Assembly (NCBI GenBank): GCA_017398805.1
Contig: JAFQEZ010000063.1
Location: forward strand, 43,472 to 107,471
Length of the DNA stretch: 64,000 bases
DNA from: Bacteroidaceae bacterium
GTDB lineage: Bacteria; Bacteroidota; Bacteroidia; Bacteroidales; Bacteroidaceae
Direction: 5' to 3'
The notes beneath the pieces were generated by a model, which had not been told where the DNA came from, searched no databases, and saw only the letters and a program-made list of their open reading frames with translations. The translations under genes were made by a program, and so were the position numbers. Below, piece by piece: positions 30,591 through 44,123 of this stretch. Numbering within the stretch: the first letter of the stretch is position 1; the number at the start of each line of letters is the position of its first letter.

Positions 30591-30672
30591 GCGCGTGTGG
30601 CGAAATTGGTAGACGCGCCAGACTTAGGATCTGGTGTTTTGCGACGTGTAGGTTCGAGTCCTATCACGCGCA
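30591..30672 (+). tRNA. tRNA-Leu (anticodon UAG), type II with long variable arm, no encoded CCA
   Basis: Acceptor stem GCGCGTG/CACGCGC. Anticodon arm CCAGA-CTTAGGA-TCTGG. T arm GTAGG-TTCGAGT-CCTAT. The variable arm is 13 nt. Confidence 0.9.
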
Positions 30673-32166
30673 CGATGAGACAAAAGAGGAGAATTCAAAA
30701 GAATTTTCCTCTTTTTTATTTTTGTAATTCACTGATAATCGTGCAATTATAGAAAGCGCCTCATTCTCATCAAAGGTTCGATAATTGTCTTTCTCCTTAT
30801 CCCACAAAATTCCATTAGGGAAAAGCAGATTTTGCAGTTTTTGGCAAGTTTCAAGCGAACCATCACGCCACAAACTGTCTAATTTACAGCACATTGCAAG
30901 TATGTCATCTACCTCGCCATCAAGGTTCGATAAATTTTTTCTGCACTCTGCCAAACCTCGCTCTATGTTATCAAGTTTTTCTTGCAAATCCTTGTTTGTC
31001 ATTTCGTATATCTCCTCATCAATCTCGCCCATGCCAAACCTAACCTTGCACTTCTTCAACTTGCCAATATATTCACTCTTTTGCTTTTTAAGCAATGTTT
31101 CCATGCTTCTAGCCTCATCATCATTGGAAATAATCATTTTTGAGATAATATCCCTCAAAAGCGGTTTAAGGCACTCTGCCACGTTAAAGAAACGCAATAG
31201 GCATTCATACCTCTCATGCAATTTCTTCGCTGATACGTTGGTTTTACAACCACTCTGATTGCATTTATAATAGTCGATGTTCTTCTTCTTGACTGTATAT
31301 GCAGTAAAAGGCGTTTTGTCTTTGGAACACAAGATATGGCGTTTCAAAGGGAAACGAGGAGTTTCCTTTTTGTGTTTGTAAACACCCGTTCTTCCACCCA
31401 ATATATCTTGCACACGCAAGAAATCCTCATAACTTACCAACTTTGGTTGATTACCATCGACCAACCTACCTTGCAACATCTTATGGCGTATTTTACCAGC
31501 ATAGAAAGGATTGGTAAGGATATGATGTAGTTTCTGTTTTCTCATAGTAAGTCCATAATCAGAGAGTTTCTTCAAAATCTCACAGTTTGCATACCCTTGC
31601 AGTTTCCACTTGAACGCCTTGCGTATCAAATGCCCTTTGTCGTTTACTGTAAAATATGTACCCAACGACTTGCCATGTTTATCATATCCCAACGGTTTAG
31701 CGGCACCACAATAGACACCACTTTCAAGGCAATGCTTACGACCTGACACAAATTTGTCAGTACGATTGCCGTTATCCCACTCAGCCAACCCCAACTTGAT
31801 ATGTATCATCATTCTTCCCTCATTAGTTGAACTATCTACGCCAGATGAAACATCAACAATGATAACATTCAGTTGTTTCAACTTTGAAACAATCATTGCT
31901 CCTTGTGCCACATTACGACTAAATCGGTCAATAGCAGGAACAAGTAGATGGGTTATTTTTTTATTTTTCTTTATAGACTCATACATTTCTTTAAGCATGG
32001 GGCCAGGCGTTTTTGCAGACTCATGCTTCCCTCCAAAGTAACCTTTTATAACAAATCCGTTTTGCCTTGCATACAACTCACATTTGGTCTTTTGGTCGCT
32101 TAAAGAAGCGCCATTATCCTCTTGGTGTTTTGTTGAGACTCTTGTCCAAATAACACAATTCTTCAT
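30664..32166 (-). CDS. Large serine recombinase (integrase)
   Basis: The N-terminus CVIWTRVSTKHQEDNGASLSDQ carries the catalytic Ser context. A recombinase domain, Cys-rich region (CSKD..C..SGC) and coiled-coil tail follow. The 3' end runs into the att junction. Confidence 0.85.
   Translation of the reverse strand: MKNCVIWTRVSTKHQEDNGASLSDQKTKCELYARQNGFVIKGYFGGKHESAKTPGPMLKEMYESIKKNKKITHLLVPAIDRFSRNVAQGAMIVSKLKQLNVIIVDVSSGVDSSTNEGRMMIHIKLGLAEWDNGNRTDKFVSGRKHCLESGVYCGAAKPLGYDKHGKSLGTYFTVNDKGHLIRKAFKWKLQGYANCEILKKLSDYGLTMRKQKLHHILTNPFYAGKIRHKMLQGRLVDGNQPKLVSYEDFLRVQDILGGRTGVYKHKKETPRFPLKRHILCSKDKTPFTAYTVKKKNIDYYKCNQSGCKTNVSAKKLHERYECLLRFFNVAECLKPLLRDIISKMIISNDDEARSMETLLKKQKSEYIGKLKKCKVRFGMGEIDEEIYEMTNKDLQEKLDNIERGLAECRKNLSNLDGEVDDILAMCCKLDSLWRDGSLETCQKLQNLLFPNGILWDKEKDNYRTFDENEALSIIARLSVNYKNKKEENSFEFSSFVSSCA
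30670..30690 (+). repeat. attL-like junction: tRNA 3' end GCAC joined to the element left-end sequence GATGAGACAAAAGAGGA
   Basis: GCACGATGAGACAAAAGAG recurs at 41258-41276 and 44105-44123. Confidence 0.8.
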
Positions 32167-32303
32167 AAGTCAATTTCTTTTTCTACAAAATTATTTATCC
32201 CAATTTCTGCCAATGCTGTCAAATATCCAATCAACACACTAGCCTCATCTTTAGTAATGTTTATTTTATTAAAGTATTCTTCATAATCACTGTATTTAAT
32301 CAT
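32163..32303 (-). CDS. Possible 46-aa upstream ORF coupled to the large serine recombinase
   Basis: Hand-translated MIKYSDYEEYFNKINITKDEASVLIGYLTALAEIGINNFVEKEIDL. Its TGA overlaps the recombinase ATG (ATGA). There is no other support. Confidence 0.25.
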   Translation of the reverse strand: MIKYSDYEEYFNKINITKDEASVLIGYLTALAEIGINNFVEKEIDL

Positions 32304-32658
32304 TCACAAAATACATTTTTCCTTGCCACAATACTCTGTGGCTTATTTTTTTGGTGCTTTGTGGCATACCAACAACGAGGAAACGCTGGAGCGTAAAGCA
32401 CCTGCTCGTTGCCATATAGATATTGCGAAAACAGACAGCACTCGCTGTGAAAGGAAATAAATTTCCTCTCGCTCGTTTGTAGCGTCTTTGCCTTTCGTGT
32501 TTGCAATAAACCTAATTCTTTCAAGGGTTGCCACCTTGTATTTTTACAATGTCTTTATTGATTATAACCCACTGTTGGAATATTCTCTTTTGCGCTTTGT
32601 TTCAGTGAGTTGTTTCGAAACATGGCAAACATATATTTTTTATTTTGAAAAAACAAAT

Positions 32659-33291
32659 TTACGCTTGCAATTTGTTAATATTTCTTAATTTTCTTAATGT
32701 ATTGACACTTGTCGATGTTATTGCAGATACATTACGAAGCGATAAACCTTTGCGCAAGAGTTGAATTTCCTTTGCATATTCCACCCTCATTGCTTCCTCG
32801 CTTTTGCGATAACCCTCTTTACGACCAACCTTGCCACCAATCGCTCTATAATGATTGTAACCACTCTCCATTCTGCTTCTTATGAGGCTACGCTCCATAC
32901 TGTTGAACTGTGCAAGAATACCCATTACAAGTTGTGCTATTGGATTGGATTGCCCATTGGGGAGCAGTGTTTCAAGTCCATTTTGGAGAATATATACGCT
33001 GATTTTCTTCGCTGTAAGATTTTCTATTACAGTAAGGAAATCTATTGCACGCCTCGATAAGCGACTGCACTCATAGATTAGAACCTTATCCACGTTGTTG
33101 CTCTCAACGAAAGAAAGCAACTCTGTAAGGGCTTGGCGTTCTGCGACTGTCTTTGCGCCACTAACCTTTTCGCAGAACTCCATCACAACCTCATATTCCA
33201 TCTTACGAGCATACTCACGCAACTCTGCCAACTGTCGCTCATAGTCTTGTCCTTGCGTGCTTACACGAGCGTATATAACAACCTTTGCCAT
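32659..33291 (-). CDS. Small serine recombinase (resolvase/invertase type) with a C-terminal HTH
   Basis: MAKVVIYARVSTQGQDYERQ at the ATG at 33291. Also has ...SRLSRR... and a C-terminal HTH (NVSAITSTSVNTLRKL). Confidence 0.8.
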   Translation of the reverse strand: MAKVVIYARVSTQGQDYERQLAELREYARKMEYEVVMEFCEKVSGAKTVAERQALTELLSFVESNNVDKVLIYECSRLSRRAIDFLTVIENLTAKKISVYILQNGLETLLPNGQSNPIAQLVMGILAQFNSMERSLIRSRMESGYNHYRAIGGKVGRKEGYRKSEEAMRVEYAKEIQLLRKGLSLRNVSAITSTSVNTLRKLRNINKLQA

Positions 33292-33304
33292 ACCCCTACT
33301 ACTA

Positions 33305-33556
33305 TTAAAGAACCTCGATAAGATTTTCAAAGCGAAGTGAACGAAATCCACCCTTTTCACAATCCCAATAGCAGACAGTGTTCACGCTATCTCTTGAAAT
33401 GCCTCTGCCATTGATGTTTGCTTTCATCAAGTTGCTTGCTGTTGTACCCCACGCCTCACGAAGCGTGCCATCTTTCTTCATATATACAAAGTGAGCAACA
33501 CCCATCTGCAACTTTGCTTTGAGTAAGTCAATCATCTGTGCCTTGATTACGCCCAT
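33305..33556 (-). CDS. DUF2693-like (SH3 beta-barrel) small protein
   Basis: 83 aa. The VAHFVYMKKDGTLREAWGT...CYWDCEKGGFRSLRFENL pattern resembles DUF2693 proteins of Bacteroidales mobile elements. Confidence 0.5.
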   Translation of the reverse strand: MGVIKAQMIDLLKAKLQMGVAHFVYMKKDGTLREAWGTTASNLMKANINGRGISRDSVNTVCYWDCEKGGFRSLRFENLIEVL

Positions 33557-33746
33557 TGCCTCGCTGTTTGTTCTACGAGCGATTACGCTTGCTCAACGAC
33601 TTGTAAGATTATTTATTACAACAACTGAATTATTTGCTACTGCTATCATGTCTCTATTGGTTAAGTGGTTAAACATATCTTTGTTTCCTTTTCGCACAGC
33701 AAAGATATGGAATATATTTAATATAATCAAACAAAATGCAATATTT

Positions 33747-33775
33747 TTATGGAATATTTTGATTATATTCCATAA
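33747..33775. promoter_or_regulatory. Operator-like palindrome in the divergent intergenic region
   Basis: TTATGGAATAT-N7-ATATTCCATAA has perfect 11-bp arms. A third ATGGAATAT lies at 33707-33715. Confidence 0.45.
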
Positions 33776-33806
33776 ATAACTACATTTGAAAATTAAAAAG
33801 CATAAA

Positions 33807-34031
33807 ATGGAAGCAAATAAACAAGAACGCACTGTAATACATCTAGAATTAAATGGAGAACATTACTATTTTGGCAGTGTAAAAGCACTTTGCGATAATT
33901 TTAGTAAAGAACAGATTGGTATTGGATACAAAAGTCTTGCAAACTATGGAATAACAGCAGATAAACCATATAGAAACAAATACTGTACTGTTAGAAAAGG
34001 AGTATTGATAACGGCTCCAAAAACTGAATAA
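33807..34031 (+). CDS. Small putative DNA-binding protein; truncated paralog at 41486-41648
   Basis: First ATG at 33807. The C-terminus YRNKYCTVRKGVLITAPKT parallels IYKNKKCTIRKGTLYVKPTT in element B. Confidence 0.4.
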   Translation: MEANKQERTVIHLELNGEHYYFGSVKALCDNFSKEQIGIGYKSLANYGITADKPYRNKYCTVRKGVLITAPKTE

Positions 34032-34088
34032 AATTTAATGTACAAAGTGTAATAAATACACGCAAAATAAACATGAAATAATAAGACT

Positions 34089-36158
34089 ATGAAAGCAAAT
34101 GAAGTGAGATTAACAGATTTCTTATCCAAAACAGATACGCAATTTGTCATCCCTATATATCAACGCAATTATGATTGGAAAAAGAATCATTGCGAACAGC
34201 TCATAAATGATATTTTAGAAGCTGGCAGAAATGAGAAAATACATTTTATAGGAAGTATTGTATATGTTCATGATGGGGTTTATTCAAGTGGTATTAAAGA
34301 GTTAGTTGTTATTGATGGACAGCAAAGAATAACAACTATTACCTTGCTATGTATAGCATTGTACCATTTCTTAAGGGAGAAAAATCCTACAGATATGCAA
34401 GCAAATAAGATTCTAAAACAATTCATTGTTAACGAGTTTGCAGAAGAGAATCAGAGGTTAAAATTAAAAGTTTCAGAAAACAATGACTCTGATTTAAAAG
34501 CGTTAATAAATGATTATCATACAGATGAAGAAACTTATTCTAACATTATAACGAATTACAAATATTTTAAACATCAAATATCAGATGAGAATGTTGATAC
34601 TATTTTGCGAGGTATTAACATGCTAATATTTGTAGAAGTTTCATTAGACAGAATACAAGATAATGCTCAACGCATCTTTGAAAGTATGAATTCAACTGGT
34701 TTGGATTTATCTCAAGCTGATTTAATTCGCAATTATATTCTTATGAACTTGTCTGCAAAAGAGCAGAATGAAATTTATAAAAAATATTGGGAATATATTG
34801 AAATATCAACTCGTATTGGCGCAGACAATAAAATGTCTGAATTTATAAGAGATTATCTTACTTTAAAGACTAAATGCATTACAAAGGAAGAAGAGGTATA
34901 TAAAACATTTAAACAGAAATACCCTCACCAAGACATAAATCAATTAGAGGATGTTTTGTCAGAGATAAAACAACTTGCAAAACCATATTCTAGACTTCTA
35001 TCTCCAACGAAAGAAGAAGACAAAAAAATCCAACAAGAAATCAAAAACATCAATTTACTCAAGATAAACACATCTTATCCTTTCCTTATGAAAGTTTATG
35101 ATGATTATTTGACTGATAAAATTGACAAGGATTGCTTCTATCGAATTTTGAGATTCATACAAACATTTGCCATAAGGCGATTTGTATTAGACCTCCCCAC
35201 AAATTCTTTCAATAAAATCTTTATGGTTTTATACGACAGGATAGACCAATCCAATTATGAAGAATCTATCTATAAATATATAATGTCTTTGGGAGGAAAA
35301 CAAAGAATCCCTAATGATAGTGAAATAAGGGAAACTTTGAAAGATAAAGATATATATTCTGCAAGGGGGAAAAACAAGGAATACCTTTTAGCACAACTTG
35401 AGAATTGGCAAAATAAAGAATTTGTTGAGATTGTTGGAAATGATAACATAACAATAGAACATATATTTCCACAGACACCAAATAATGATTGGAAAATACA
35501 ATTAAACAAAGAAGAATACAATGATTTTGCTTCAACATATCTACATACATTAGGCAATCTAACACTATCAGGGAACAACGGTTCGCTTGGGAATAAGACA
35601 TTTGAGCAAAAGAAGTACATGAATTACGATGGAAAAGAACAAGGATACATATATAGTCGTTTGTGGATGAATTCATATTTGAAAACCATAGACACTTGGA
35701 ATATCAAAAATTATCAAGAGCGTACAAAAATCCTCACAGACAGATTTCTTGAAGTGTGGAAATTGCCAAACATACATATTGAGAAAGATTCTTATGCAGG
35801 TGAAATCAATATATTTGATATAGATGACCCTACTGGAAAAACGATGCAATATGCTAGATTCTTTGGTAAAATTGTAAGGACTACAGACTCTAAATTGGAA
35901 TATGCGGGATTGTTGATTTATGTTGCAAAAAACATATACGAAATTGCTCCTAAAGAATTTATAGAAAATCTTTCAACAGAACTGAATCTTGGTAAAGATT
36001 TACCAAATTGGAGAAGACCTCAAAAAATAGATGAAGAATATAGTATAGAAACAAACCTTTCTGCTAAAGATATATTCAAAAGAGTTCGCTCAATTTTGAA
36101 TACATTTAGATTAGAAGAGGATTTGTATATCTGCTTTAAAGATGATGATGTAATTTAA
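34089..36158 (+). CDS. GmrSD-family (DUF262 + DUF1524) modification-dependent Type IV restriction endonuclease
   Basis: FVIPIYQRNYDW and VIDGQQRITT are DUF262/ParB-like motifs. ITIEHIFPQ...LHTLGNLTLSGNNGSLGNKTF is the DUF1524 His-Me finger. Confidence 0.85.
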   Translation: MKANEVRLTDFLSKTDTQFVIPIYQRNYDWKKNHCEQLINDILEAGRNEKIHFIGSIVYVHDGVYSSGIKELVVIDGQQRITTITLLCIALYHFLREKNPTDMQANKILKQFIVNEFAEENQRLKLKVSENNDSDLKALINDYHTDEETYSNIITNYKYFKHQISDENVDTILRGINMLIFVEVSLDRIQDNAQRIFESMNSTGLDLSQADLIRNYILMNLSAKEQNEIYKKYWEYIEISTRIGADNKMSEFIRDYLTLKTKCITKEEEVYKTFKQKYPHQDINQLEDVLSEIKQLAKPYSRLLSPTKEEDKKIQQEIKNINLLKINTSYPFLMKVYDDYLTDKIDKDCFYRILRFIQTFAIRRFVLDLPTNSFNKIFMVLYDRIDQSNYEESIYKYIMSLGGKQRIPNDSEIRETLKDKDIYSARGKNKEYLLAQLENWQNKEFVEIVGNDNITIEHIFPQTPNNDWKIQLNKEEYNDFASTYLHTLGNLTLSGNNGSLGNKTFEQKKYMNYDGKEQGYIYSRLWMNSYLKTIDTWNIKNYQERTKILTDRFLEVWKLPNIHIEKDSYAGEINIFDIDDPTGKTMQYARFFGKIVRTTDSKLEYAGLLIYVAKNIYEIAPKEFIENLSTELNLGKDLPNWRRPQKIDEEYSIETNLSAKDIFKRVRSILNTFRLEEDLYICFKDDDVI

Positions 36159-36174
36159 CTTTTATTTTGTCCAT

Positions 36175-36213
36175 AAATTGATTGCCACCGGCTTCGCCGA
36201 TGGCAATCAATTT
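36175..36213. terminator. Bidirectional hairpin between convergent genes; duplicated at 42676-42710
   Basis: AAATTGATTGCCACCGGC-ttc-GCCGATGGCAATCAATTT forms an 18-bp stem with one mismatch. Confidence 0.7.
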
Positions 36214-36223
36214 ATATAAAAAT

Positions 36224-37219
36224 CTATTTTATTTCATTATCAAATAAGAATAGAGGATAATCAATTTTGTAGTCAATAGAACCATTATCACGCAGTATTG
36301 TGAGTATCTTGCCCATTGCATTTTCGCCAATCAAGGTGTAGTTGCATTGGGCAAGTATTGTCTGTTCACATATATCCACAATATCGTTCATAGACTGCAA
36401 CTGTGCTTTGAGTTTATCATCAAAAGATTTCTGTTTAGAGGCACTACGAGGTTTTTTAAGCGAGGCAGTCTTTGCCAAAGCGTCTTTCTCAAACGAACGA
36501 ATATAACGCCCTGTAGAGGTTCTCACTGCCCTTACAAGGTCTTTTTTCTGCAAGTCTTGACAACCCCAACGATGAACGCTGTTTGTTGAGTTTTGCATGG
36601 TAGTATCTTCAACGATGATTTTTCCTTTTGTCTTTGCAAGCAACTTTTGAAAACCCTTATTTTGAGCATACTTCAAGTTTACAATATATTTCATTACCTC
36701 TACATCAAAATGGTTGTCATGCCAATTAGGGTGATGGAATTTCTTGTATTTTTCACCATTGACAAATATTTTCTTGCAATACATAGAATTGGGATATTCC
36801 ATAATCTCACGCTGTAAATCGGGATAACCCGAAAATCGCAAGGCAATAAACAAATGTTCGCTTGTCTTGAATTTATATCCACAGCACTCGACTGGGTACG
36901 CTGTGCTCATATTAGAAAATGCACCAAACTCACCATTCAATTTGCCAAAGGTTACAATATCATTTGACTTGTAATATTCAGTTCTGCCAAATACGATTTC
37001 ATAAGGATTGTATATGCTCTCTATCTCATTGGGTTTAGTATATAAATCCCTTATTGGGAGATTAAGGGCACGCCCCATAGTTTCGACAATCTTTTGACTT
37101 GCGTGTTCTCCTTTTAATAATGAATAGCAATATTCACGAGTAACACCTATCATTTGAGCAAACTCACGAACTGATATGCCTCTTTGGTTTATTATCTCTT
37201 TTACTCTTAATTCTGCCAT
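36224..37219 (-). CDS. HTH (XRE-like) fused to a NADAR (YbiA/DUF1768-like) domain protein
   Basis: The N-terminus is KEIINQRGISVREFAQMIGVTREYCYSLLKG. The central region GAFSNMSTAYPVECCGYKFKTSEHLFIALRF...NLKYAQNKGFQKLLAKTKGKIIVEDT...WGC follows the NADAR pattern. Confidence 0.6.
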   Translation of the reverse strand: MAELRVKEIINQRGISVREFAQMIGVTREYCYSLLKGEHASQKIVETMGRALNLPIRDLYTKPNEIESIYNPYEIVFGRTEYYKSNDIVTFGKLNGEFGAFSNMSTAYPVECCGYKFKTSEHLFIALRFSGYPDLQREIMEYPNSMYCKKIFVNGEKYKKFHHPNWHDNHFDVEVMKYIVNLKYAQNKGFQKLLAKTKGKIIVEDTTMQNSTNSVHRWGCQDLQKKDLVRAVRTSTGRYIRSFEKDALAKTASLKKPRSASKQKSFDDKLKAQLQSMNDIVDICEQTILAQCNYTLIGENAMGKILTILRDNGSIDYKIDYPLFLFDNEIK

Positions 37220-37297
37220 GAGAAATTGATTTTGACAAATGTAATATTATTTATTACAATATTGATAAATTGTCGATGTATTTGTATTAAAATAAAA

Positions 37298-37337
37298 ATG
37301 TATCAATATAACCTTAAAATTAGTCGTATTGATACAT
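37298..37337. promoter_or_regulatory. 11-bp perfect inverted repeat in the AT-rich region between the Rep_trans-like and NADAR genes
   Basis: ATGTATCAATA-N18-TATTGATACAT. Further TATCAATA/TATTGATA copies lie near 37258 and 37411. Confidence 0.45.
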
Positions 37338-37466
37338 TCTTTTTGTATTATTCTAACATAAAATATTAAACTGCATTTCATACATAGGTTTAATATAGAT
37401 TATCCTCTATTATATCAATAAATTAGAGTAATAATACATGTATTCATAGGGTGGTTTACTAATACC

Positions 37467-38351
37467 CTACGCTACAATATCAAGGACATCGAGGGTCTGT
37501 TTACCCTTGACTGTTTGGAAGCGTAGCACTCTGTTTGAAAAGTCAAGAAACAAACGCCAAAGGAAATCTTCGTTGCAGAACAGCATTGGATTGTATTCTA
37601 TACCCAAGTGTTGGAAATATTCTCGCAAGGTATCGCCATTGACACGAACCTCTAAACGAAAAAGATAGTTGGGGTTGCCATTGGCTTCTGCGATGTAGTG
37701 TTTGCCACTGTTGCTTTCGATTTCTCGTTTCTTGTTGTAGGCAGAGAGGCGTAAATCGCCATTCTTCTGCTGAACGATGAGGCTGTATTCCTTAATTCTA
37801 CGACAAGAACCTACACCAATGTAGAGTATATCTTCAAGGAGTTTATCCCTATCTGTTACCTTTGTGCCATTGACTATGGGGATAAGTGCTTCATCACGAA
37901 TGGCACGAATTAAGCGTTTGGATAGGTTGCGAGTGTCATCGAAAGCGAGGTCAAGGCGTGTAAGGTTGTGGAATTTCAATCCCAACATTCCCTCAATGTA
38001 ATCGAGGTAAACAAGGCGATTGTGGGTGTTATAGTTGTAGTTGAGGTATAGTTGCTTGTTGTCTATCTCAATCCATACGAAACCACTCATTTCGCCCTCT
38101 TTGTCTGCTTTCAATCCCCAACGCAATGTGCCAAAGCATTGCATATCGTACTCACTGTTGGGGTTGTTGCTTGTTCGTTCAAGATAGATGATTTTGTAGA
38201 TGTTATCGTAATATTTGCCCTCTGTCCTTTCAAGGCGAAAATCCCAATGTGGGAGTTCATAGACTTCGAGGGGTGTTTCCATTAGTTGATATAATGGAGA
38301 GTTCTCATAAAGTGTGTAGCATAGTTTTACTTTGTCAGCACTGATTTTCAT
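37467..38351 (-). CDS. Rep_trans-like rolling-circle replication initiator or MobT-type relaxase
   Basis: LTRLDLAFDD and RLSAYNKKREIE resemble the Rep_trans motifs (R.D.A.D and YdK..E). The start is taken at MKISADKV (38351). Confidence 0.5.
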   Translation of the reverse strand: MKISADKVKLCYTLYENSPLYQLMETPLEVYELPHWDFRLERTEGKYYDNIYKIIYLERTSNNPNSEYDMQCFGTLRWGLKADKEGEMSGFVWIEIDNKQLYLNYNYNTHNRLVYLDYIEGMLGLKFHNLTRLDLAFDDTRNLSKRLIRAIRDEALIPIVNGTKVTDRDKLLEDILYIGVGSCRRIKEYSLIVQQKNGDLRLSAYNKKREIESNSGKHYIAEANGNPNYLFRLEVRVNGDTLREYFQHLGIEYNPMLFCNEDFLWRLFLDFSNRVLRFQTVKGKQTLDVLDIVA

Positions 38352-38532
38352 TGTTAATACTGTTTTTATTCTCATTATTTCCATCATTGGGCTTATTGGG
38401 GATTGTACTCCAATATGCCCTCATGCCATCGCTGATGGCTTGTTTGTGGCTGTCGCTTAACGTGCGATTTTTCAACCCTTGACTGATACGCTGTTTGGTA
38501 TCTGCATTTAATTCTCTAAATTGTCTTTTCAT
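38335..38532 (-). CDS. Small basic protein with NUMOD3-like repeats
   Basis: ADTKQRISQGLKNRTLSDSHKQAISDGMRAYW. It overlaps the Rep-like start by 17 nt. Confidence 0.3.
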   Translation of the reverse strand: MKRQFRELNADTKQRISQGLKNRTLSDSHKQAISDGMRAYWSTIPNKPNDGNNENKNSINNENQC

Positions 38533-38744
38533 AAGCAATACTGTTTATATATAAATATTTCACAAACGAGCGAGATATAAAGCTTGCTTTAATATTTCAA
38601 AGCGAGTGCAGTAAATATTCATCGTTTACGATAAATAGTAGCATAAGTAGAAAAAGAGTAAATAGTAAGTAACTTTTTTGAAAAATATTTTTTGTACAAA
38701 AAACGAAAAACAGTTTTTACCTATACTACTAAAATGGTTTTGTG

Positions 38745-38860
38745 ATAAGCGATAGAGGTTACATAGATAAAAAGCACCCACAGAGGGGTGCTGAATGTGT
38801 TTTGCTATTTGATACCATTACCAACCTTGTCAAAAGTCACCATATCACAAACATTTCGAG
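38745..38860 (-). repeat. Backbone junction: minus-strand terminator hairpin plus 3' remnant of the 92-95-aa end gene
   Basis: AGCACCC-acagag-GGGTGCT (38773-38792) is followed on the minus strand by a T-run. The remnant encodes ...CDMVTFDKVGNGIK*. Nts 38745-38831 are near-identical to 42781-42864. Confidence 0.7.
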
Positions 38861-38976
38861 ATGTTGTTTTGTTTAAATTTGAGAGTTTTCCTCAAAACCA
38901 CTTGCAAAATAGGATTTTGCATACTATTTTTGAAAAGTTTTTGAGATTTATTAGCAACAATCTAACAATCAATCAT

Positions 38977-40245
38977 ATGTTACTAGAATTTTCTTGTGCA
39001 AATTTTAGGTCTATTCATAAAGTATGCACATTATCAATGGTCGCTCAAAAAATTACAGATGAGCCCAAAAACAATATCGCTTATGTAAACGATAAACTAA
39101 ACATTTTGAAGACTGCTGCAATTTATGGAGCAAACTCTAGTGGAAAATCGAATGTGCTTAATGCATTTGCATCAATGGTTTGGCATATTATATATTCTGT
39201 AAAATTAAATGATGGAGATGAACTACGCTATGAGCCGTTCAAATTATCTTCCGCTGGTAAAGAGGCTACATATTATGAAGCAAAGTTTATATTAAATGGT
39301 CAAACATATCGTTATGGTTTTGAACATGATGACAAAACAATTATTAGTGAATGGCTTTATTCATCTTCTATTGGTAGTAAAAAAGAGCAAATTTTGTTTC
39401 TTCGCAATGAAGATGGTATTGGAGTTAATGAAAAAAGTTTTCCAGAAGGTGTTGATAAGGAAGAAAGCACTGTTGAAAACCGACTTTTCTTATCCTTATG
39501 TGCACAATTAAATGGTAAATGTTCAAAACAAATAATAGATAAATTCAAGACATTCAATGTTATATCAGGTATAAACTCCAATCGTTATGCAGGTTATTCA
39601 AAAGCAATGTTGCATAAACAATTAGATGGATATGGAGATGCTATTGATTTTTTTAAAACACTTCAATTAGGATTTGAATCAATTCAAACGAAAGAACGGG
39701 AAGTTGAAATTCCTGAAGATTTTCCAGAAAGAATAAAAGAAGAACTTACGAACAAACTAAAAGGCAAAAAAGATATTGAGTTAAGAAGCATTCATAATGT
39801 GTATGATGAAGATGGAAGAATCGTTGGTACTACTTTGTTTGATTTTAATAGAGCAGAATCTGAAGGAACAAAAAAAATAATTCAATTATCAGGTCCGATA
39901 TTTGATACTTTAAATAGGGGACTTGTACTCTGTGTAGATGAAATTGATGTAAAGATGCACCCACTTATATCGCAGTTCATTATTAACTTATTTAATGATC
40001 CCGAAAAGAATACAAAAAATGCCCAACTTATATTTACAACACACGACACTCATTTGCTCTCATCTAAAATGTTAAGAAGAGACCAAATTTGGTTTACGGA
40101 AAAGGATGCCACAGAGCAAACTGACCTATACAACATGATGGACATTGAACTCCCTGATGGAAGCAAGCCTCGTCCTGATGCAAATTATAAGCGCAACTAC
40201 ATCGCTGGTAGATATGGTGCTATTCCATATATAATAAATGAATGA
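38977..40245 (+). CDS. AAA/ABC-type ATPase (AbiLi/RloA-like)
   Basis: The ATG at 38977 gives MLLEFSCANFRSI. Walker A is GANSSGKSN, Walker B is LCVDEIDVKMHP, and QLIFTTHDTHLL follows. Confidence 0.8.
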   Translation: MLLEFSCANFRSIHKVCTLSMVAQKITDEPKNNIAYVNDKLNILKTAAIYGANSSGKSNVLNAFASMVWHIIYSVKLNDGDELRYEPFKLSSAGKEATYYEAKFILNGQTYRYGFEHDDKTIISEWLYSSSIGSKKEQILFLRNEDGIGVNEKSFPEGVDKEESTVENRLFLSLCAQLNGKCSKQIIDKFKTFNVISGINSNRYAGYSKAMLHKQLDGYGDAIDFFKTLQLGFESIQTKEREVEIPEDFPERIKEELTNKLKGKKDIELRSIHNVYDEDGRIVGTTLFDFNRAESEGTKKIIQLSGPIFDTLNRGLVLCVDEIDVKMHPLISQFIINLFNDPEKNTKNAQLIFTTHDTHLLSSKMLRRDQIWFTEKDATEQTDLYNMMDIELPDGSKPRPDANYKRNYIAGRYGAIPYIINE

Positions 40246-40967
40246 TTATGGCTAGAAAAATAAAAATAGACAATGCTATCTTAAAGCGCTTTGAGCAAAA
40301 AACAAGAAAGCAAAAGGCTAGTAAGAAAATTTCTTGTCGAATTCTTATTGTTTGCGAAGGCGAAAAAACCGAGCCTAATTACTTTAAAAAATTCAAATTG
40401 ATAAGCAATAACAGCTTTACTTATGAAGTCCATTGTGAAGGCTGTGGCGAGGGAACAATGAAGGTTGTTAATACAGCTATTCACTTAGCAAAAAAAACAG
40501 AACTTTCGTCACAGCCTTATGATAGCGTTTGGGCTGTTTTTGACAAAGATAATTTTGCTGATTTCAATGCAGCTATTGAAAAAGCAGAGAACAACAATAT
40601 CAATGTTGCATGGAGTAATGAAGCTTTTGAATTATGGTATTTATACCATTTCCATAATCGTACAACACGAATGAGTAGAAATGACTATAAAAAAGCAATT
40701 TCTGATGCCGTAAACGCCACTGGTAAATGGCCTAAGAAGCAACCATATGAATACAAAAAAGAAGATGAAAATAATTACAACATCATGAACACTTATGGCA
40801 ATATAAGGAATGCTATAAAGTGGGCAAAACAACAACATCAGACATTTGCTGACAAAAATTACGCAAACCAAAACCCATGCACTACAGTATATAAACTTGC
40901 ACTACAGTTATTGAATGAAGATAAAGATTTGATTGATGCTGTAATGAATAAGATAAACTCCAACTAA
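40242..40967 (+). CDS. RloB-like (AbiLii-like, Toprim-related) protein
   Basis: RILIVCEGEKTEPNYFK and AWSNEAFELWYLYHF are RloB signatures. The start overlaps the ATPase stop (ATGA). Confidence 0.8.
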   Translation: MIMARKIKIDNAILKRFEQKTRKQKASKKISCRILIVCEGEKTEPNYFKKFKLISNNSFTYEVHCEGCGEGTMKVVNTAIHLAKKTELSSQPYDSVWAVFDKDNFADFNAAIEKAENNNINVAWSNEAFELWYLYHFHNRTTRMSRNDYKKAISDAVNATGKWPKKQPYEYKKEDENNYNIMNTYGNIRNAIKWAKQQHQTFADKNYANQNPCTTVYKLALQLLNEDKDLIDAVMNKINSN

Positions 40968-41251
40968 CAATTAAGCATATCGGGTTTATCAACATCACAA
41001 ACTCTCTCAAAAGTTACCATATCGTAACCCTCTGCTCTCAAATAATGAACGAAATCCACGACTTTTAGAAAGTCTCGTTTAAAGTTGGCTGTGCCGACAA
41101 TTTCTTGCCACGGCATAGATGAAACAAGTTTCTCTCTGCCCGTTTGGCTTAACGAAATGTTGGCTTCGCCTTCAATTTCTCGCCATGGCAAAGTGCAAGC
41201 AAGCTCGCCTTTGCTCATTTGGCTTAACGAAATTGTTCGATAATTTGTCAC
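40964..41251 (-). CDS. Uncertain 95-aa ORF (GTG start) covering two 75-nt repeat units plus a conserved C-terminal segment
   Basis: Paralog of 43820-44098. Only the C-terminal part (ANFKRDFLKVVDFVHYLRAEGYDMVTF) is conserved in all copies and remnants. The N-terminal part may be non-coding repeat. Confidence 0.35.
   Translation of the reverse strand: MTNYRTISLSQMSKGELACTLPWREIEGEANISLSQTGREKLVSSMPWQEIVGTANFKRDFLKVVDFVHYLRAEGYDMVTFERVCDVDKPDMLNC
41084..41233. repeat. Two tandem 75-nt units (type A then type B), each with an internal imperfect hairpin
   Basis: The units begin GTTGGCT and end TTTGGCTTAACGAAA. The hairpins lie at 41112-41140 and 41188-41214. Confidence 0.8.
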
Positions 41252-41278
41252 AAATTTGCACGATGAGACAAAAGAGGA
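41245..41278 (+). repeat. attP-like junction between elements A and B
   Basis: TTGTCACA-aatttGCACga-TGAGACAA is an imperfect dyad. It equals the right-end 16-mer plus the left-end GATGAGACAAAAGAG. Confidence 0.75.
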
Positions 41279-41309
41279 ATTCTCAAAAAAAGAGAGTTCC
41301 TCTTTTTTT

Positions 41310-41492
41310 GAGAATCGACAATACTTGCAGCAATAGGTCGCAGGATGCGTGGCGTAGTCACGCCCTGCGGGTTGCGAAAAGCGAGTGTTGTCAATTTTAC
41401 TATCAGAATCGACAATGCCGACAGCGGTTGGTCAAACGAAGTACGGGCGAAGCTCGTACCGTTTGGGCCGCGATAAGGAGGCGTTGTCAATT
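41310..41492 (+). repeat. Two tandem ~95-nt modules: AGAATCGACAAT box, bulged hairpin, GTTGTCAATT box
   Basis: Boxes lie at 41311/41405 and 41387/41483. Hairpins lie at 41339-41369 and 41433-41465. Confidence 0.7.
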
Positions 41493-41648
41493 AAAAAAGC
41501 AGGTATTTCCCAAGCGGCATTAAACAACTATTTCAGCAAGTTGGGAGAGAATGATGAACCCATATATAAAAACAAAAAGTGTACCATAAGAAAAGGTACA
41601 CTCTATGTTAAACCCACAACAAGGGGGCGTAAGAAACAAGGGGAATAA
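41486..41648 (+). pseudogene. Probable 5'-truncated paralog of the small DNA-binding gene 33807-34031
   Basis: Only the C-terminal half is homologous, and there is no ATG near the start of homology (TTG at 41486). Confidence 0.3.
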
Positions 41649-41806
41649 GATTGATAAAATTTATAATTTGCTTTATCAAAATTAGTAACTTTGCTAACAA
41701 ATGCGAATAGTGTTATAAAATAGACTTATAACACCTAAAAACTCTACCAAAGTGGAGATTTTGCAGAAATAATGACTTATTCATTCGGTATAAATCTAAA
41801 ACATAT

Positions 41807-41814
41807 TATATTTG
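41807..41814 (+). promoter_or_regulatory. Candidate -7 box TATATTTG upstream of the TM/zinc-ribbon gene
   Basis: Matches TAnnTTTG, about 290 nt upstream of the ATG at 42105. Confidence 0.35.
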
Positions 41815-42104
41815 CAGAAACATAACAAAAAACACATGCCTATGAAGCATTGACAAATTAAAGACATATAAATAAAAAGCGTTAGCTTGTATTCTTGTTC
41901 TTGAAAATCGCCAAATTTTAAAGAGCACCAAGGGTAAAAGTTAATGCTCACGTCATTCTATGGCGTGGGCTTTTACTCGTATATGGTGCACGGTGTTTGG
42001 CGATACCTCAAGAACATAGACGAAGTTTTAGTCCACGTTTTTTATTTGTCTAAATTGGGGGATTTTGGACAATTACAACAATTTAATTTTAAAAAAATAA
42101 GTTT

Positions 42105-42641
42105 ATGGAAAATTTTGATTTTACTTGGGTAGCATGCGGTATAATATGGGCATTAATCGCAGTATCAGGCACTTGGATTGCAGCTCAAGTTATGGATAAT
42201 TTTACAACCAAGAAAAATAACATCATAATTATACTGTCAATCTTGTCTATAATAGAAATAGTTCTATTTATAAAATTGCTCGATTATATGGGACCTGAAT
42301 ATGGTGGAGGTTATAGTAAATTCAGTTTCGGGAACAAATTTCATTTAGGTTATTTAGCTAGTATGGTTTTACAAGGAGTTTTTGGTTACATCTTTGCAAG
42401 AAATACAAGTGACATCTGCCCGCATTGTGGAACTTGGAACGAGATTAACGGAATTGCCGAGGTTGATAGTCGTGAATATTCTAAATGGGAAACTCATAGC
42501 AACAACATAAGGGATAAACACGGAAATAAAGTCGGGTCTTATGATAGTAGGCATTTACATAATTACAACGAAAAAGAGTTTTTGGTTGAATGTAAAAAAT
42601 GTGGAACGCAATTTTATGTAAAAAGAACATATGAAGCCTAA
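42105..42641 (+). CDS. Membrane protein (about 3 TM helices) with a C-terminal CxxC...CxxC zinc-ribbon
   Basis: 178 aa. The hydrophobic segments are WVACGIIWALIAVSGTWIAAQV, IIIILSILSIIEIVLFIKLL and LGYLASMVLQGVFGYIFA, followed by CPHCG...CKKCG. Confidence 0.6.
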   Translation: MENFDFTWVACGIIWALIAVSGTWIAAQVMDNFTTKKNNIIIILSILSIIEIVLFIKLLDYMGPEYGGGYSKFSFGNKFHLGYLASMVLQGVFGYIFARNTSDICPHCGTWNEINGIAEVDSREYSKWETHSNNIRDKHGNKVGSYDSRHLHNYNEKEFLVECKKCGTQFYVKRTYEA

Positions 42642-42675
42642 TCAAAATCCATTAATAACTGATTAAACTTTATAC

Positions 42676-42864
42676 AATGATTGCCACCGGCTTCGCCGAT
42701 GGCAATCATTTAATATAAAAATCTACTTTATTTCATTATCAAATAAGAATAAGGGATAATCAATTTTGTAGTCAACGAATATAAGGATAGGGGTTACATA
42801 GATAAACAGCACCCACAGAGGGTGCTGGTACTGTTTTAGGATTTGATACCATTACCAACCTTGT
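42676..42864. repeat. Backbone blocks shared with element A, fused by deletion of the NADAR-Rep module
   Basis: Nts 42676-42775 match 36176-36276 (terminator plus the last ~50 nt of the NADAR gene). Nts 42781-42864 match 38745-38831. Confidence 0.8.
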
Positions 42865-42949
42865 AAGAATATTTATTTAGAAATATTTTAAATTACGTTA
42901 AAAAATAGATTTTGTGGCAATACAAATTGTTTTGTATAATATAATGCAT

Positions 42950-42957
42950 TATATTTG
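42950..42957 (+). promoter_or_regulatory. Candidate -7 box TATATTTG, with TTTG at 42931-42934
   Basis: Matches the Bacteroidetes promoter consensus immediately upstream of the structured leader. Confidence 0.45.
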
Positions 42958-42964
42958 CAGTAAC

Positions 42965-43056
42965 GATTAGGCTCACGGCAAAGCGTATCCGATAGCATCC
43001 AATCAGTTGCTAATCTCGATAGTGGATACGCCTACCCTTGAGCATTTTTTATTTTA
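42965..43056 (+). ncRNA. Structured ~90-nt leader or small RNA ending in a terminator-like T-run, 12 nt before the NYN gene ATG
   Basis: There are three nested stems: GCTCA/TGAGC (42971-75/43039-43), GCGTATCC/GGATACGC (42983-90/43024-31) and TAGCA/TGCTA (42993-97/43008-12). ATTTTTTATTTT follows. Confidence 0.4.
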
Positions 43057-43068
43057 TTACTTATTACC

Positions 43069-43764
43069 ATGAAAACAAATTCCTTTCCTCCAGTAAAAAT
43101 TGCAGTGTTAATTGATGGTGGTTTCTTTATAAAGCGTTTTAATGCTTTATATAATAAAGATAGAAAAATGTCTGGTAAAGATGTCGCAGAGTGCTTATAT
43201 ACTTTCGCACATAGTCATGTCGGTAATGAAAATACGTTATATAGGATTTTTTATTATGACTGCCTACCGCTGGATAAAAAAATGCATAACCCTATAACAA
43301 AAAAAGCTATTGATTTTTCAAAAAGTGAAGAGTACAAGTTTAGGGTTGAGTTATTTGAAACTCTAAAGATGAAACGTAAAGTCGCTTTGAGACTTGGCAA
43401 TTTAAAAGATAATGGAAAATGGTGCATACATAGTAATAAAGTTAAAGAATTATTATCTGGAAAAATAAAAGTTGAAGACTTAAAAGAAAATGATGTATAT
43501 CTTGAAATACGCCAGAAAGGCATTGACATGAAAATTGGTGTTGATATATCTTCAATCGCATTAAAAAGATTTGTCGACAGAATTATATTAATATCAGGAG
43601 ACGCGGATTTTGTACCTGCGGCAAAACTAGCAAGAAGGGAAGGCGTGGACTTCATTCTTGACCCTATGGGAGCAAATGTAGAACCTAGTTTATTTGAACA
43701 TATAGACGGTTTAGAAAACAAAAATATTCGAATTAATAGAAAGAACAAACCAAAAAAGAAATAA
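43069..43764 (+). CDS. NYN-domain (LabA/PIN-like) putative ribonuclease
   Basis: VKIAVLIDGGFF...RIFYYDC...QKGIDMKIGVDISS...IILISGDADFVPAAKLARREGVDFILDPM follows the NYN pattern. Confidence 0.8.
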   Translation: MKTNSFPPVKIAVLIDGGFFIKRFNALYNKDRKMSGKDVAECLYTFAHSHVGNENTLYRIFYYDCLPLDKKMHNPITKKAIDFSKSEEYKFRVELFETLKMKRKVALRLGNLKDNGKWCIHSNKVKELLSGKIKVEDLKENDVYLEIRQKGIDMKIGVDISSIALKRFVDRIILISGDADFVPAAKLARREGVDFILDPMGANVEPSLFEHIDGLENKNIRINRKNKPKKK

Positions 43765-43819
43765 ACGTTTTTCATTTCCTTTATTCTGTTTCATATCTAT
43801 TTTAAATCGAATAACACTT

Positions 43820-44098
43820 TTATTGTTTATTGACAGCATTGCTACCAACCTTGTCAAAAGTTACCATATCGTAACCCTCTGCTCTCAAATAATGAACAAA
43901 ATCCACGACTTTAAGAAAGTCTCGTTTAAAGTTGGCTTCGCCTTCAATTTCTCGCCATGGCAAAGTGCAAGCAAGCTCGCCTTTGCTCATTTGGCTTAAC
44001 GAAAAGTTGGCTTCGCCGACAATTTCTCGCCACGGCATAGATGAAACAAGTTTCTCTCTGCCCGTTTGGCTTGACGAAATTGTTCGATAATCTGTCAC
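43820..44098 (-). CDS. Uncertain 92-aa ORF (GTG start), paralog of 40964-41251
   Basis: It has the same C-terminal segment. The N-terminal part is the two 75-nt units in the opposite order. Confidence 0.35.
   Translation of the reverse strand: MTDYRTISSSQTGREKLVSSMPWREIVGEANFSLSQMSKGELACTLPWREIEGEANFKRDFLKVVDFVHYLRAEGYDMVTFDKVGSNAVNKQ
43931..44080. repeat. Two tandem 75-nt units (type B then type A)
   Basis: Near-identical to the 41084-41233 units, but the order is swapped. Confidence 0.8.
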
Positions 44099-44123
44099 AA
44101 ATTTGCACGATGAGACAAAAGAG
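44092..44123 (+). repeat. attP-like junction between elements B and C
   Basis: CTGTCACAAATTTGCACGATGAGACAAAAGAG. Confidence 0.75.

Follow-up and report, generated by a model that had tools for sequence, protein, structure and literature searches.

Toxins held in check by a single-copy RNA encoded upstream of them are known from RCd22/AbiF and AvcI/AvcD. RCd22, an abiF-motif RNA from a C. difficile prophage, is a structured non-coding RNA located directly upstream of a nuclease-like Abi gene, AbiF (Abi_2); it contains two copies of a conserved motif and neutralizes the toxin in cis as well as in trans, by binding it directly (PMC12373285). In AvcID, the non-repeated small RNA AvcI (~170-300 nt), encoded upstream, inhibits the protein toxin AvcD, a dCTP/dCMP deaminase that becomes active once a phage has stopped host transcription and the unstable RNA has decayed; no terminator has been reported between the two genes (PMC10511110). 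Here we analyze a module that may follow a similar logic, composed of a hairpin RNA and the gene of an NYN-domain protein, found in a stretch of 64,000 nucleotides from a Bacteroidaceae bacterium (assembly GCA_017398805.1, contig JAFQEZ010000063.1, positions 43,472 to 107,471; hereafter the window, whose own numbering we use). The hairpin is a conserved RNA motif, far beyond chance, its coupling to the NYN gene is near-obligate, and the layout is conserved over hundreds of loci in several phyla. We tentatively propose that the RNA is both partner and inhibitor of the NYN protein.

Results

The hairpin RNA and its promoter

On the plus strand of the window, ahead of the NYN gene, a Bacteroidota -7 promoter box TATATTTG (TAnnTTTG; 42950-42957) is followed by the conserved single-stranded hexamer GAUUAG (42965-42970), the predicted 5' tail of an RNA whose transcription would start, judging from promoter spacing, at ~42963-42966. 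An outer helix, P1, joins the strands GCTCACGG (42971-42978; RNA GCUCACGG) and CCTTGAGC (43036-43043; RNA CCUUGAGC) through 5 bp, one C/U mismatch and 2 bp, and an inner helix of 8 bp, P2, joins GCGTATCC (42983-42990; RNA GCGUAUCC) and GGATACGC (43024-43031; RNA GGAUACGC). They are separated by an internal loop with CAAA on its 5' side (42979-42982; family consensus C-N-A-C/A) and CUAC on its 3' side (43032-43035; consensus C-N-A-C). P2 encloses P3, a variable and optional hairpin UAGCA...UGCUA (42993-43012, in which TAGCA at 42993-42997 forms 5 bp with TGCTA at 43008-43012), and a conserved apical-loop tail, AUCUCGAUAGU (43013-43023), including a second hexamer, GAUAGU (43018-43023), immediately 5' of the P2 3' strand. 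A T-run, ATTTTTTATTTT (43044-43055), with T columns at least 90% conserved, abuts P1, and the ATG of the NYN gene, at 43069, lies 13 nt past the T-run and 25 nt past P1.

A first-pass annotation, made by a model from the sequence without database searches, had already noticed promoter elements, nested stems of 5, 8 and 5 bp and a T-run. All of them are present, P1 continuing beyond a mismatch for two further pairs. The annotated distance of 25 nt between outer stem and start codon also holds, while the 12 nt given from the T-run is in fact 13. As for the consensus-like promoter, the -7 box is conserved, whereas the candidate -33 element TTTG (42931-42934, plus strand, 15 nt from the -7 box) is not kept in the upstream regions of the homologues.

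RNAfold reproduced the nested fold, which is more stable than expected by chance, with a minimum free energy of -26 kcal/mol and z = -2.57, and 2 of 200 dinucleotide shuffles were as stable. P1 and P2 followed by ATTTTTTATTTT have the sequence pattern of an intrinsic (Rho-independent) terminator, a GC-rich stem and a U-tract; together they look like such a terminator, and the short RNA ending there would measure ~80-90 nt in the window. A simple terminator scanner with a loop limit of 8 nt passed over the hairpin, whose enclosed loop is longer. Leader-peptide attenuation was ruled out, as the leader has neither an ATG nor any plus-strand open reading frame (ORF) of at least 40 aa. The RNA is single-copy, as first annotated: Tandem Repeats Finder detected no tandem repeats in 42700-43300, and the covariance model described below, R1, matched the window only once, on the plus strand at 42961-43053 (79 bits). 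No tRNA or tmRNA was found at the site.

The first-pass annotation had recognized no known riboswitch or leader in this RNA, which Rfam 15 bore out. At the gathering score only a tRNA was matched in the whole window, elsewhere; at E values up to 10 over 42700-43300 nothing covered the hairpin, the nearby matches being noise; and at 14 diverse homologous loci no family, abiF included, matched the motif. These scans rule out the RNA families of Rfam 15, including abiF, ToxI and the riboswitches.

Conservation and coupling to the NYN gene

A protein-guided scan, with one genome per species, yielded 80 loci with NYN homologues of 50-87% identity, which span Bacteroidales, Chitinophagaceae, Burkholderiaceae, Alphaproteobacteria and Pseudomonadales. 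By eye and with a simple stem search, the same hairpin was found 8-41 nt before the start codon in nearly all of them, with very different helices: P1 may read GCUCAYGG/CCUUGAGC, GCCUUUGG/CCAAAGGC, GCCCAUGG/CCAUGGGC or GCUCCUGG/CCAGGAGC, and P2 GCGUAUCC/GGAUACGC, GCACAUCC/GGAUGUGC, GUUUGUUC/GAACAAGC or GCAUUCUC/GAGAAUGC. From a MAFFT alignment of 63 distinct homologous leaders (A1), RNAalifold predicted 13 pairs, 12 of them with compensatory changes. We also specified by hand the structure of 16 pairs formed by P1 and P2 and scored it on A1 against 500 shuffles and slid-partner controls. Cells were paired in 91.7% of cases (75.7% in shuffles), 15 of the 16 pairs change on both sides, and the covariation score was 0.508, compared with 0.218 in shuffles and at most 0.146 in slid controls; none of the 500 shuffles reached any of these measures. 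Covariation among homologues, which the first-pass annotation had named as a check, is thus strong. P3 is an insertion of variable length, present only in part of the members, whose stems covary between loci; the minimal members, devoid of P3, are two-stem hairpins of 54 nt.

One position of P1 (A1 columns 18 and 93; 42976 and 43038 in the window) is a non-Watson-Crick U/U or C/U in 26 of the 63 leaders, mostly from Bacteroidales; other lineages have a standard pair there. The position may adjust the strength of the terminator or serve as a recognition feature.

In each of the 80 genome loci, the covariance model R1, built from A1, has a match directly upstream of the NYN homologue. A second and independent protein-guided scan, of IMG/VR, retrieved 111 viral contigs with NYN relatives; among the 80 taken from them, the R1 motif was in place in 79, the lone exception being a cut-off sequence, so that the structure does stand upstream of orthologous NYN genes, another point on which the first-pass annotation could have failed. 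In the reverse direction, metagenome contigs were scanned with a pattern drawn only from the 5' half of the RNA, and the matches were validated by R1: 18 were retained, and the NYN gene came directly next in 16 of the 17 with downstream sequence. The exception, in locus L188 (L188:212-309), is a degenerate orphan copy of the motif with no NYN gene after it. Two other orphan copies were seen, one strong (50.7 bits), situated ~100 nt downstream of a different NYN gene and equipped with a TAnnTTTG box (L074:707-783), and one weak and degenerate, located after a prophage lysozyme gene in a lysis region (L026:5785-5867); such copies may act in trans as additional RNAs or be what is left of decayed modules. 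A scan of viral contigs with the motif pattern gave 8 chance matches, none of them with a model match or an NYN gene.

No protein gene accompanies the pair. In an all-against-all clustering of the neighbor genes of the 80 genome loci only NYN was common, which rules out a conserved partner protein gene, and the Pfam families of the neighbors are heterogeneous; a protein antitoxin or partner is therefore unlikely.

Transcription geometry and the two hexamers

Among 79 distinct loci, 59 have an exact TAnnTTTG box 12-15 nt ahead of P1 (60 if one at 10 nt is counted); in proteobacterial members sigma-70 -35/-10 pairs take its place, with the -10 six nt before the conserved CAUCNA. Judged by the usual promoter spacing, the first nucleotides of the RNA would be those of the conserved hexamer ahead of P1. 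In every lineage, including the distant versions found via the protein alone, P1 runs straight into the U-tract, and the ATG follows P1 at 8-41 nt, leaving therefore no room for a second promoter. With the promoter before the hairpin, the U-tract against P1 and the start codon too near for any other promoter, most transcripts would end as short hairpin RNA, of a predicted ~55-90 nt across the family, and NYN would be translated only from those that read through.

Two single-stranded hexamers are conserved, one in the 5' tail before the 5' strand of P1 and the other at the end of the apical loop before the 3' strand of P2, and they change jointly between lineages: GAUUAY/GAUAAU in Bacteroidales, UAUUGU/UAUAGC or GAUAGC/GAUAGC in Chitinophagaceae, and CAUCNA/CAUCNA in Proteobacteria. 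Within a locus their identity is 4.09 of 6 positions, versus 3.10 in shuffled pairings, and none of 10000 shuffles was as high, a test that is confounded by phylogeny and for which some proteobacterial registers were corrected by hand. Pairing of the 5' GAUUA with the loop UAAU in a pseudoknot was ruled out, the hexamers of other lineages being alike and not complementary. The joint change of the hexamers favors co-evolution with a protein over a universal small ligand. On a coaxial P1-P2 helix, the two units of strand and tail would be related by a pseudo-dyad passing through the internal loop, a pattern as expected of the binding site of a dimeric protein co-evolving with the RNA and unlike a small-molecule pocket. 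Because no other protein gene is conserved nearby, NYN is the obvious candidate, and it may bind the hairpin as its cognate partner.

Distant versions in phages, plasmids and E. coli

Protein searches among annotated phages and plasmids revealed the family in E. coli lambdoid and Stx2a-converting phages, in Burkholderia phage phiE202 (gp9, 'Cpp15'), in Moraxella, Dorea, Lactococcus and Streptococcus phages, and in Campylobacter pTet plasmids, Xanthomonas plasmids and a Thermus megaplasmid. We read the upstream DNA of six distant versions directly (E. coli phage ev099, Xanthomonas, Thermus, Streptococcus phage Javan85, Moraxella phage Mcat4 and Dorea phage DO134P1), and all keep the succession of promoter, short tail, P1, internal loop, P2, apical loop, U-tract and ATG; phiE202 also counts among the carriers of the same promoter, hairpin, T-run and ATG geometry. 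In ev099 (L169:2880-3000), for instance, TTGACG-N17-TAGATT precedes GCCCAG...CTGGGC, then TATTTTTTT, then the ATG. The hairpin could thus be identified by hand at ~40% protein identity, compared with 50% for the covariation analysis.

The internal loop differs between the branches of the family. It is a symmetric C-N-A-C/C-N-A-C in Bacteroidales, versus AGUA opposite GAA or GAG in proteobacterial and Firmicutes versions (leaders L068, L070, L075-L078, L080, L172, L266 and L267), so that the motif falls into two structural sub-classes. The latter loop is similar to a loop-E/sarcin-ricin module; such modules are common protein-binding platforms.

Many of these modules reside in mobile elements, at positions typical of lysogen-expressed accessory or exclusion genes. 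In ev099 the module, which has a sigma-70 promoter and a hairpin of its own, is located between cI and N, where lambda carries rexAB, and the same NYN gene, unannotated there, occurs in 48 records of Stx2a-converting phages. In the P2-like phage phiE202 the module has a TA (toxin-antitoxin) pair on one side and the integrase on the other, and in Javan85 it is placed between an XRE repressor and the integrase. Other copies are carried by conjugative and mobilizable plasmids, and the neighbors on viral contigs include integrase, Ant (anti-repressor), terminase and portal genes. Of 5426 complete E. coli genomes, 275 carry the E. coli version, O121 STEC (Shiga toxin-producing E. coli) among them.

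The NYN protein

The gene at 43069-43764 (plus strand) codes for a protein of 231 aa with a single Pfam family, NYN (PF01936; E = 3.8e-9, 37.6 bits against a gathering cut-off of 24.2), which also matches phrog_5783 (E = 9e-88), the PHROG of unknown function to which the whole NYN family studied here corresponds. Residues D16, D64, D153, D159, D178 and D180 are invariant in 44 sequences, so that the acidic set expected of an NYN/PIN-like active site is intact and the protein is expected to be catalytically competent. The AlphaFold2 model (confidence scores pLDDT 90.5 and pTM 0.84) has its best Foldseek matches in the PDB among NYN domains, namely VPA0982 (2qip, E = 2.4e-7) and MARF1 (5yaa, E = 4.7e-5); by sequence, no close solved structure was found, 2qip being a marginal match. 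An insertion of ~80 residues (~66-150), beta-rich and strongly basic, with invariant R103, K104 and R108, is a plausible RNA-binding surface in the model.

The family is large. Each of two word-indexed searches returned at least ~8000 clusters at 90% identity, and an exhaustive search of 50%-identity representatives returned 218 clusters at E <=1e-30 and 1048 at E <=1e-10. Among the matches listed, the only family names were 'NYN domain-containing', 'LabA/DUF88 family' and 'Cpp15', and no member was characterized.

Integrative elements and cargo slots in the window

In the window, the module is part of an integrative element. Three copies of GCACGATGAGACAAAAGAG, at 30670, 41258 and 44105, come after a tRNA-Leu (30591-30673) and delimit two tandem elements (30591-44123). 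Element A, of ~10.6 kb, codes for a large serine recombinase (500 aa, its stop codon abutting the 3' end of the tRNA-Leu), a resolvase, GmrSD, a helix-turn-helix (HTH)-NADAR protein and AbiLi/AbiLii. Element B, of ~2.85 kb, is a relative of A without recombinase, with the RNA and NYN as cargo; it has the appearance of a deletion derivative, one that A could mobilize. The first-pass annotation had placed the module in the cargo position held by the AbiL-like system in element A, and indeed the same flanking blocks bracket both cargoes: 38751-38835 in A resembles 42786-42869 in B, and 40997-41276 resembles 43844-44123.

The left boundary of the slot in B, GATACCATTACCAACCTTGTAAGAA (42845-42869, plus strand), partly duplicates the 3' end of a 92-aa gene, in a block that also precedes AbiL at 38811-38835; the right boundary, GCTACCAACCTTGTCAAAAGTTACCATATCG (43841-43871, plus strand), is the 3' end of that minus-strand gene itself and a direct repeat of the left one. 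Both slots are in fact flanked by direct repeats of ACCAACCTTGTCAAAAGT, the 3' end of a small gene on the minus strand (encoding 95 aa in A and 92 aa in B), at 38811-38848 and 41005-41030 in A and at 42845-42869 and 43841-43871 in B. These repeats suggest cassette-like insertion or exchange at a fixed hotspot. The proteins of 95 aa (40964-41251, minus strand) and 92 aa (43820-44098, minus strand), without match in Pfam, NCBIfam or PHROG, contain two internal repeats of ~25 aa, …SQMSKGELACTLPWREIEGEANF… and …SQTGREKLVSSMPWREIVGEANF…, whose order is swapped between the two.

Each cargo slot has a conserved bidirectional terminator hairpin ahead of it. In B, it is CAGCACCCACAGAGGGTGCTG (42807-42827), a terminator-like hairpin of 8 bp, 6 of them GC, with T-rich tails on both strands, located in the conserved block before the cargo; its counterpart in A lies at ~38772-38792. 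It would insulate the RNA-NYN module from upstream transcription.

A second variable slot (34089-36276 in A, 42105-42775 in B) is occupied in A by GmrSD (34089-36158). In B it contains the gene of a membrane protein of 178 aa (42105-42641), which has a zinc ribbon at its C terminus and may be another defense or exclusion cargo. Each of the two is preceded by a related ORF of 81 or 87 aa (phrog_10608) and followed by a block of 104 nt, 93% identical between the two (36173-36276 and 42672-42775). Element A also encodes a fusion of HTH_3 and NADAR (331 aa; 36224-37219, minus strand). NADAR domains reverse DarT-type DNA ADP-ribosylation, and this gene could be antitoxin-like or anti-defense.

Discussion

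The explanation that we favor, tentatively and with somewhat less than even confidence, is that of a type III-like TA or abortive-infection module in which the self-terminating hairpin is the partner and inhibitor of an NYN ribonuclease made by read-through. A constitutive promoter would start transcription ~6 nt before a hairpin RNA made up of 5' tail, P1, symmetric internal loop, P2, optional P3 and conserved apical loop. The U-tract placed right after P1 would end most transcripts as an abundant RNA of ~55-90 nt, and the minority that read through would be the only ones to encode the NYN endoribonuclease. The hairpin would be the ligand of NYN, its two similar half-sites of single strand and helix, with their pseudo-two-fold symmetry, fitting a protein dimer; it would hold the nuclease inactive and might also feed back on its own terminator as an autoregulatory operator. 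If transcription of the module stopped or the RNA were destroyed, by phage infection or loss of the element, free NYN would cleave cellular or phage RNA, the outcome being abortive infection, superinfection exclusion or addiction to the element. AvcI/AvcD (PMC10511110) and RCd22/AbiF (PMC12373285) are precedents in favor of this explanation, with a single-copy RNA inhibitor upstream of the toxin. A more ambitious version, which we regard as rather doubtful, is that of a new class of RNA antitoxin in which one small RNA has three roles, those of a terminator setting the ratio of RNA to protein, of a pseudo-two-fold clamp on the NYN dimer and of an infection sensor lost or displaced at phage shut-off; such modules, which also occur in Bacteroidota gut phages, would be among the more widespread exclusion modules of prophages and plasmids.

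Several observations weigh against an RNA antitoxin. The antitoxins of type III TA systems are tandem direct repeats processed by the toxin, whereas the RNA described here is single-copy and devoid of repeats. The idea of symmetry and of a dimer comes from the sequence pattern only, and the hexamer test, as said, shares its signal with phylogeny. On the Campylobacter pTet plasmids, the hairpin upstream of the homologue (~42% identity to the Cupriavidus query) looks different. Many of the copies in chromosomes lie between ordinary metabolic and housekeeping genes, outside recognizable defense islands, a setting typical of small selfish modules and not a specific sign of defense. Searches of PADLOC-DB 2.0 with the window protein and five distant homologues gave no full-length match to a defense model but only partial, weak matches to the generic NYN core (PDLC01154, E = 4e-6; HEC-09, E = 1.6e-3), and membership in its catalogued systems was rejected.

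The same geometry, moreover, is explained by a cis-only autoregulatory attenuator, which we consider unlikely and which is nonetheless the main rival, the others being less likely still. NYN would bind or cleave its own nascent leader, either stabilizing P1 and raising termination or destabilizing the transcript, and thereby keep the nuclease low; the short RNA would have no function in trans and no TA logic would be involved. That the terminator belongs to the conserved structure and that the loops change by lineage, as would fit recognition by a protein, agrees well with it, all the more as stem-loop recognition is common for NYN and PIN-like RNases such as Regnase-1/MCPIP1. However, a universal and efficient-looking terminator implies an excess of short RNA, wasteful for feedback alone, and the orphan copies (L074, with its own promoter, and L188 as a second example) hint at a role in trans, unless they are remnants. 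An excess of short RNA would also suit a ribonucleoprotein that needs the hairpin as a structural or targeting subunit, or a sensor in which it acts as a decoy displaced by a phage factor. One-to-one coupling, apparent co-evolution and conserved loops, including the loop-E-like AGUA/GAA internal loop of proteobacterial and Firmicutes versions, point in that direction; yet no segment is variable in a guide-like manner except P3, optional and absent from many members, and no precedent is known for RNA-guided NYN enzymes, so that we judge this quite improbable.

A riboswitch for a small molecule or ion, or an RNA thermosensor, setting the read-through into NYN would be in keeping with a conserved structured 5' leader that ends in a terminator and has conserved nucleotides in its internal and apical loops. 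We give it little credit, because transcription starting ~6 nt before P1 allows no upstream anti-terminator pairing, the minimal forms are simple two-stem hairpins of ~54 nt, and the unpaired nucleotides differ by lineage, the hexamers changing jointly, whereas ligand pockets are usually the same across lineages. Furthermore, the sole associated gene is that of a mobile-element nuclease, neither metabolic nor transport-related, and Rfam gave no match. Least likely of all, to the point of being hardly credible, is a generic element without specific partner, be it a 5' stabilizing stem-loop or the leftover terminator of an upstream gene inherited with NYN: for all its resemblance to an intrinsic terminator and its modest fold z of -2.6 in the window, the hairpin has the promoter upstream of it, not downstream, retains loop conservation and strong covariation down to 50% protein identity (~40% for the versions identified by hand), keeps its architecture across phyla and unrelated genomic contexts, and already has a separate insulating terminator ahead of it at 42807-42827.

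If the RNA does act as antitoxin of NYN, the NYN fold and an architecture in which the terminator is itself the antitoxin would be added to the RNA-controlled toxin and defense systems, and a large protein family without assigned function (phrog_5783) would receive its first functional lead. The version carried by ev099, Stx2a-converting phages and 275 of 5426 E. coli genomes offers a convenient experimental model. Whatever its function, the motif is a well-supported structured RNA, absent from Rfam 15, that can be curated now and used to annotate loci.

Comparison with known systems

Like other NYN/PIN-like RNases (the MARF1 NYN domain 5yaa, VPA0982 2qip, LabA/DUF88), the NYN protein has the Pfam NYN domain, with its fold and conserved acidic residues; Rae1/YacP and Regnase-1 are further ribonucleases of the NYN or PIN-like kind. 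The phrog_5783 subfamily differs from them in its extra basic insertion of ~80 aa, the lack of a LOTUS/OST-HTH domain and its near-obligate upstream RNA. With rexAB of lambda and other exclusion genes of lysogeny modules, the likeness is positional only (cI-N in ev099, repressor-integrase in the Streptococcus phage), with no relation in sequence or mechanism.

With the type III TA systems ToxIN, CptIN and TenpIN, the module shares the succession of one promoter, a non-coding RNA, a predicted Rho-independent terminator and an endoribonuclease gene whose expression would require read-through, as well as the absence of a protein antitoxin and carriage by plasmids and phages. A single promoter indeed precedes both RNA and gene (box 12-15 nt before P1, ATG 8-41 nt after), and by sequence a terminator, GC-rich P1 plus T-run, lies between RNA and ORF in all lineages. 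By contrast, the type III terminator is a separate hairpin, whereas here it is the RNA's own outer helix, and the toxin fold is that of the ToxN/AbiQ/CptN endoRNases, whereas the protein is here NYN/PIN-like according to Pfam and Foldseek. The type III layout proposed in the first-pass annotation therefore stands for the order of promoter, RNA, T-run and nuclease gene, while the module departs from classical type III systems in the tandem repeats, the separate terminator hairpin and the ToxN/AbiQ fold. We do not file the module as a type III member because tandem repeats and a ToxN-fold toxin, two defining features, are lacking; a ToxIN-type system, with tandem repeats processed by the toxin and a ToxN fold, is not supported, and a type III-like mode of action is a plausible lead.

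AvcI/AvcD and RCd22/AbiF, with their single-copy RNA inhibitors, appear to be the closest functional analogues. The two motif copies of RCd22 resemble the two similar half-sites of our hairpin; its partner, however, is an Abi_2/HEPN-like protein and not NYN, and the pair has neither sequence nor fold in common with our module. AvcI/AvcD is likewise unrelated to it in sequence and fold; the RNA studied here measures 55-90 nt and is itself a predicted terminator. Full-text searches of the literature on NYN together with type III TA, structured RNA, riboswitches, Bacteroides sRNA or prophage exclusion, in which subscription journals were covered less than exhaustively, returned no account of the motif, and the first 200 of the 408 supplementary files of Fremin & Bhatt 2021 do not mention NYN or LabA. 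The RNA motif and the NYN effector fold appear to be new, in what would be, as an RNA-controlled nuclease module, a system of a known kind.

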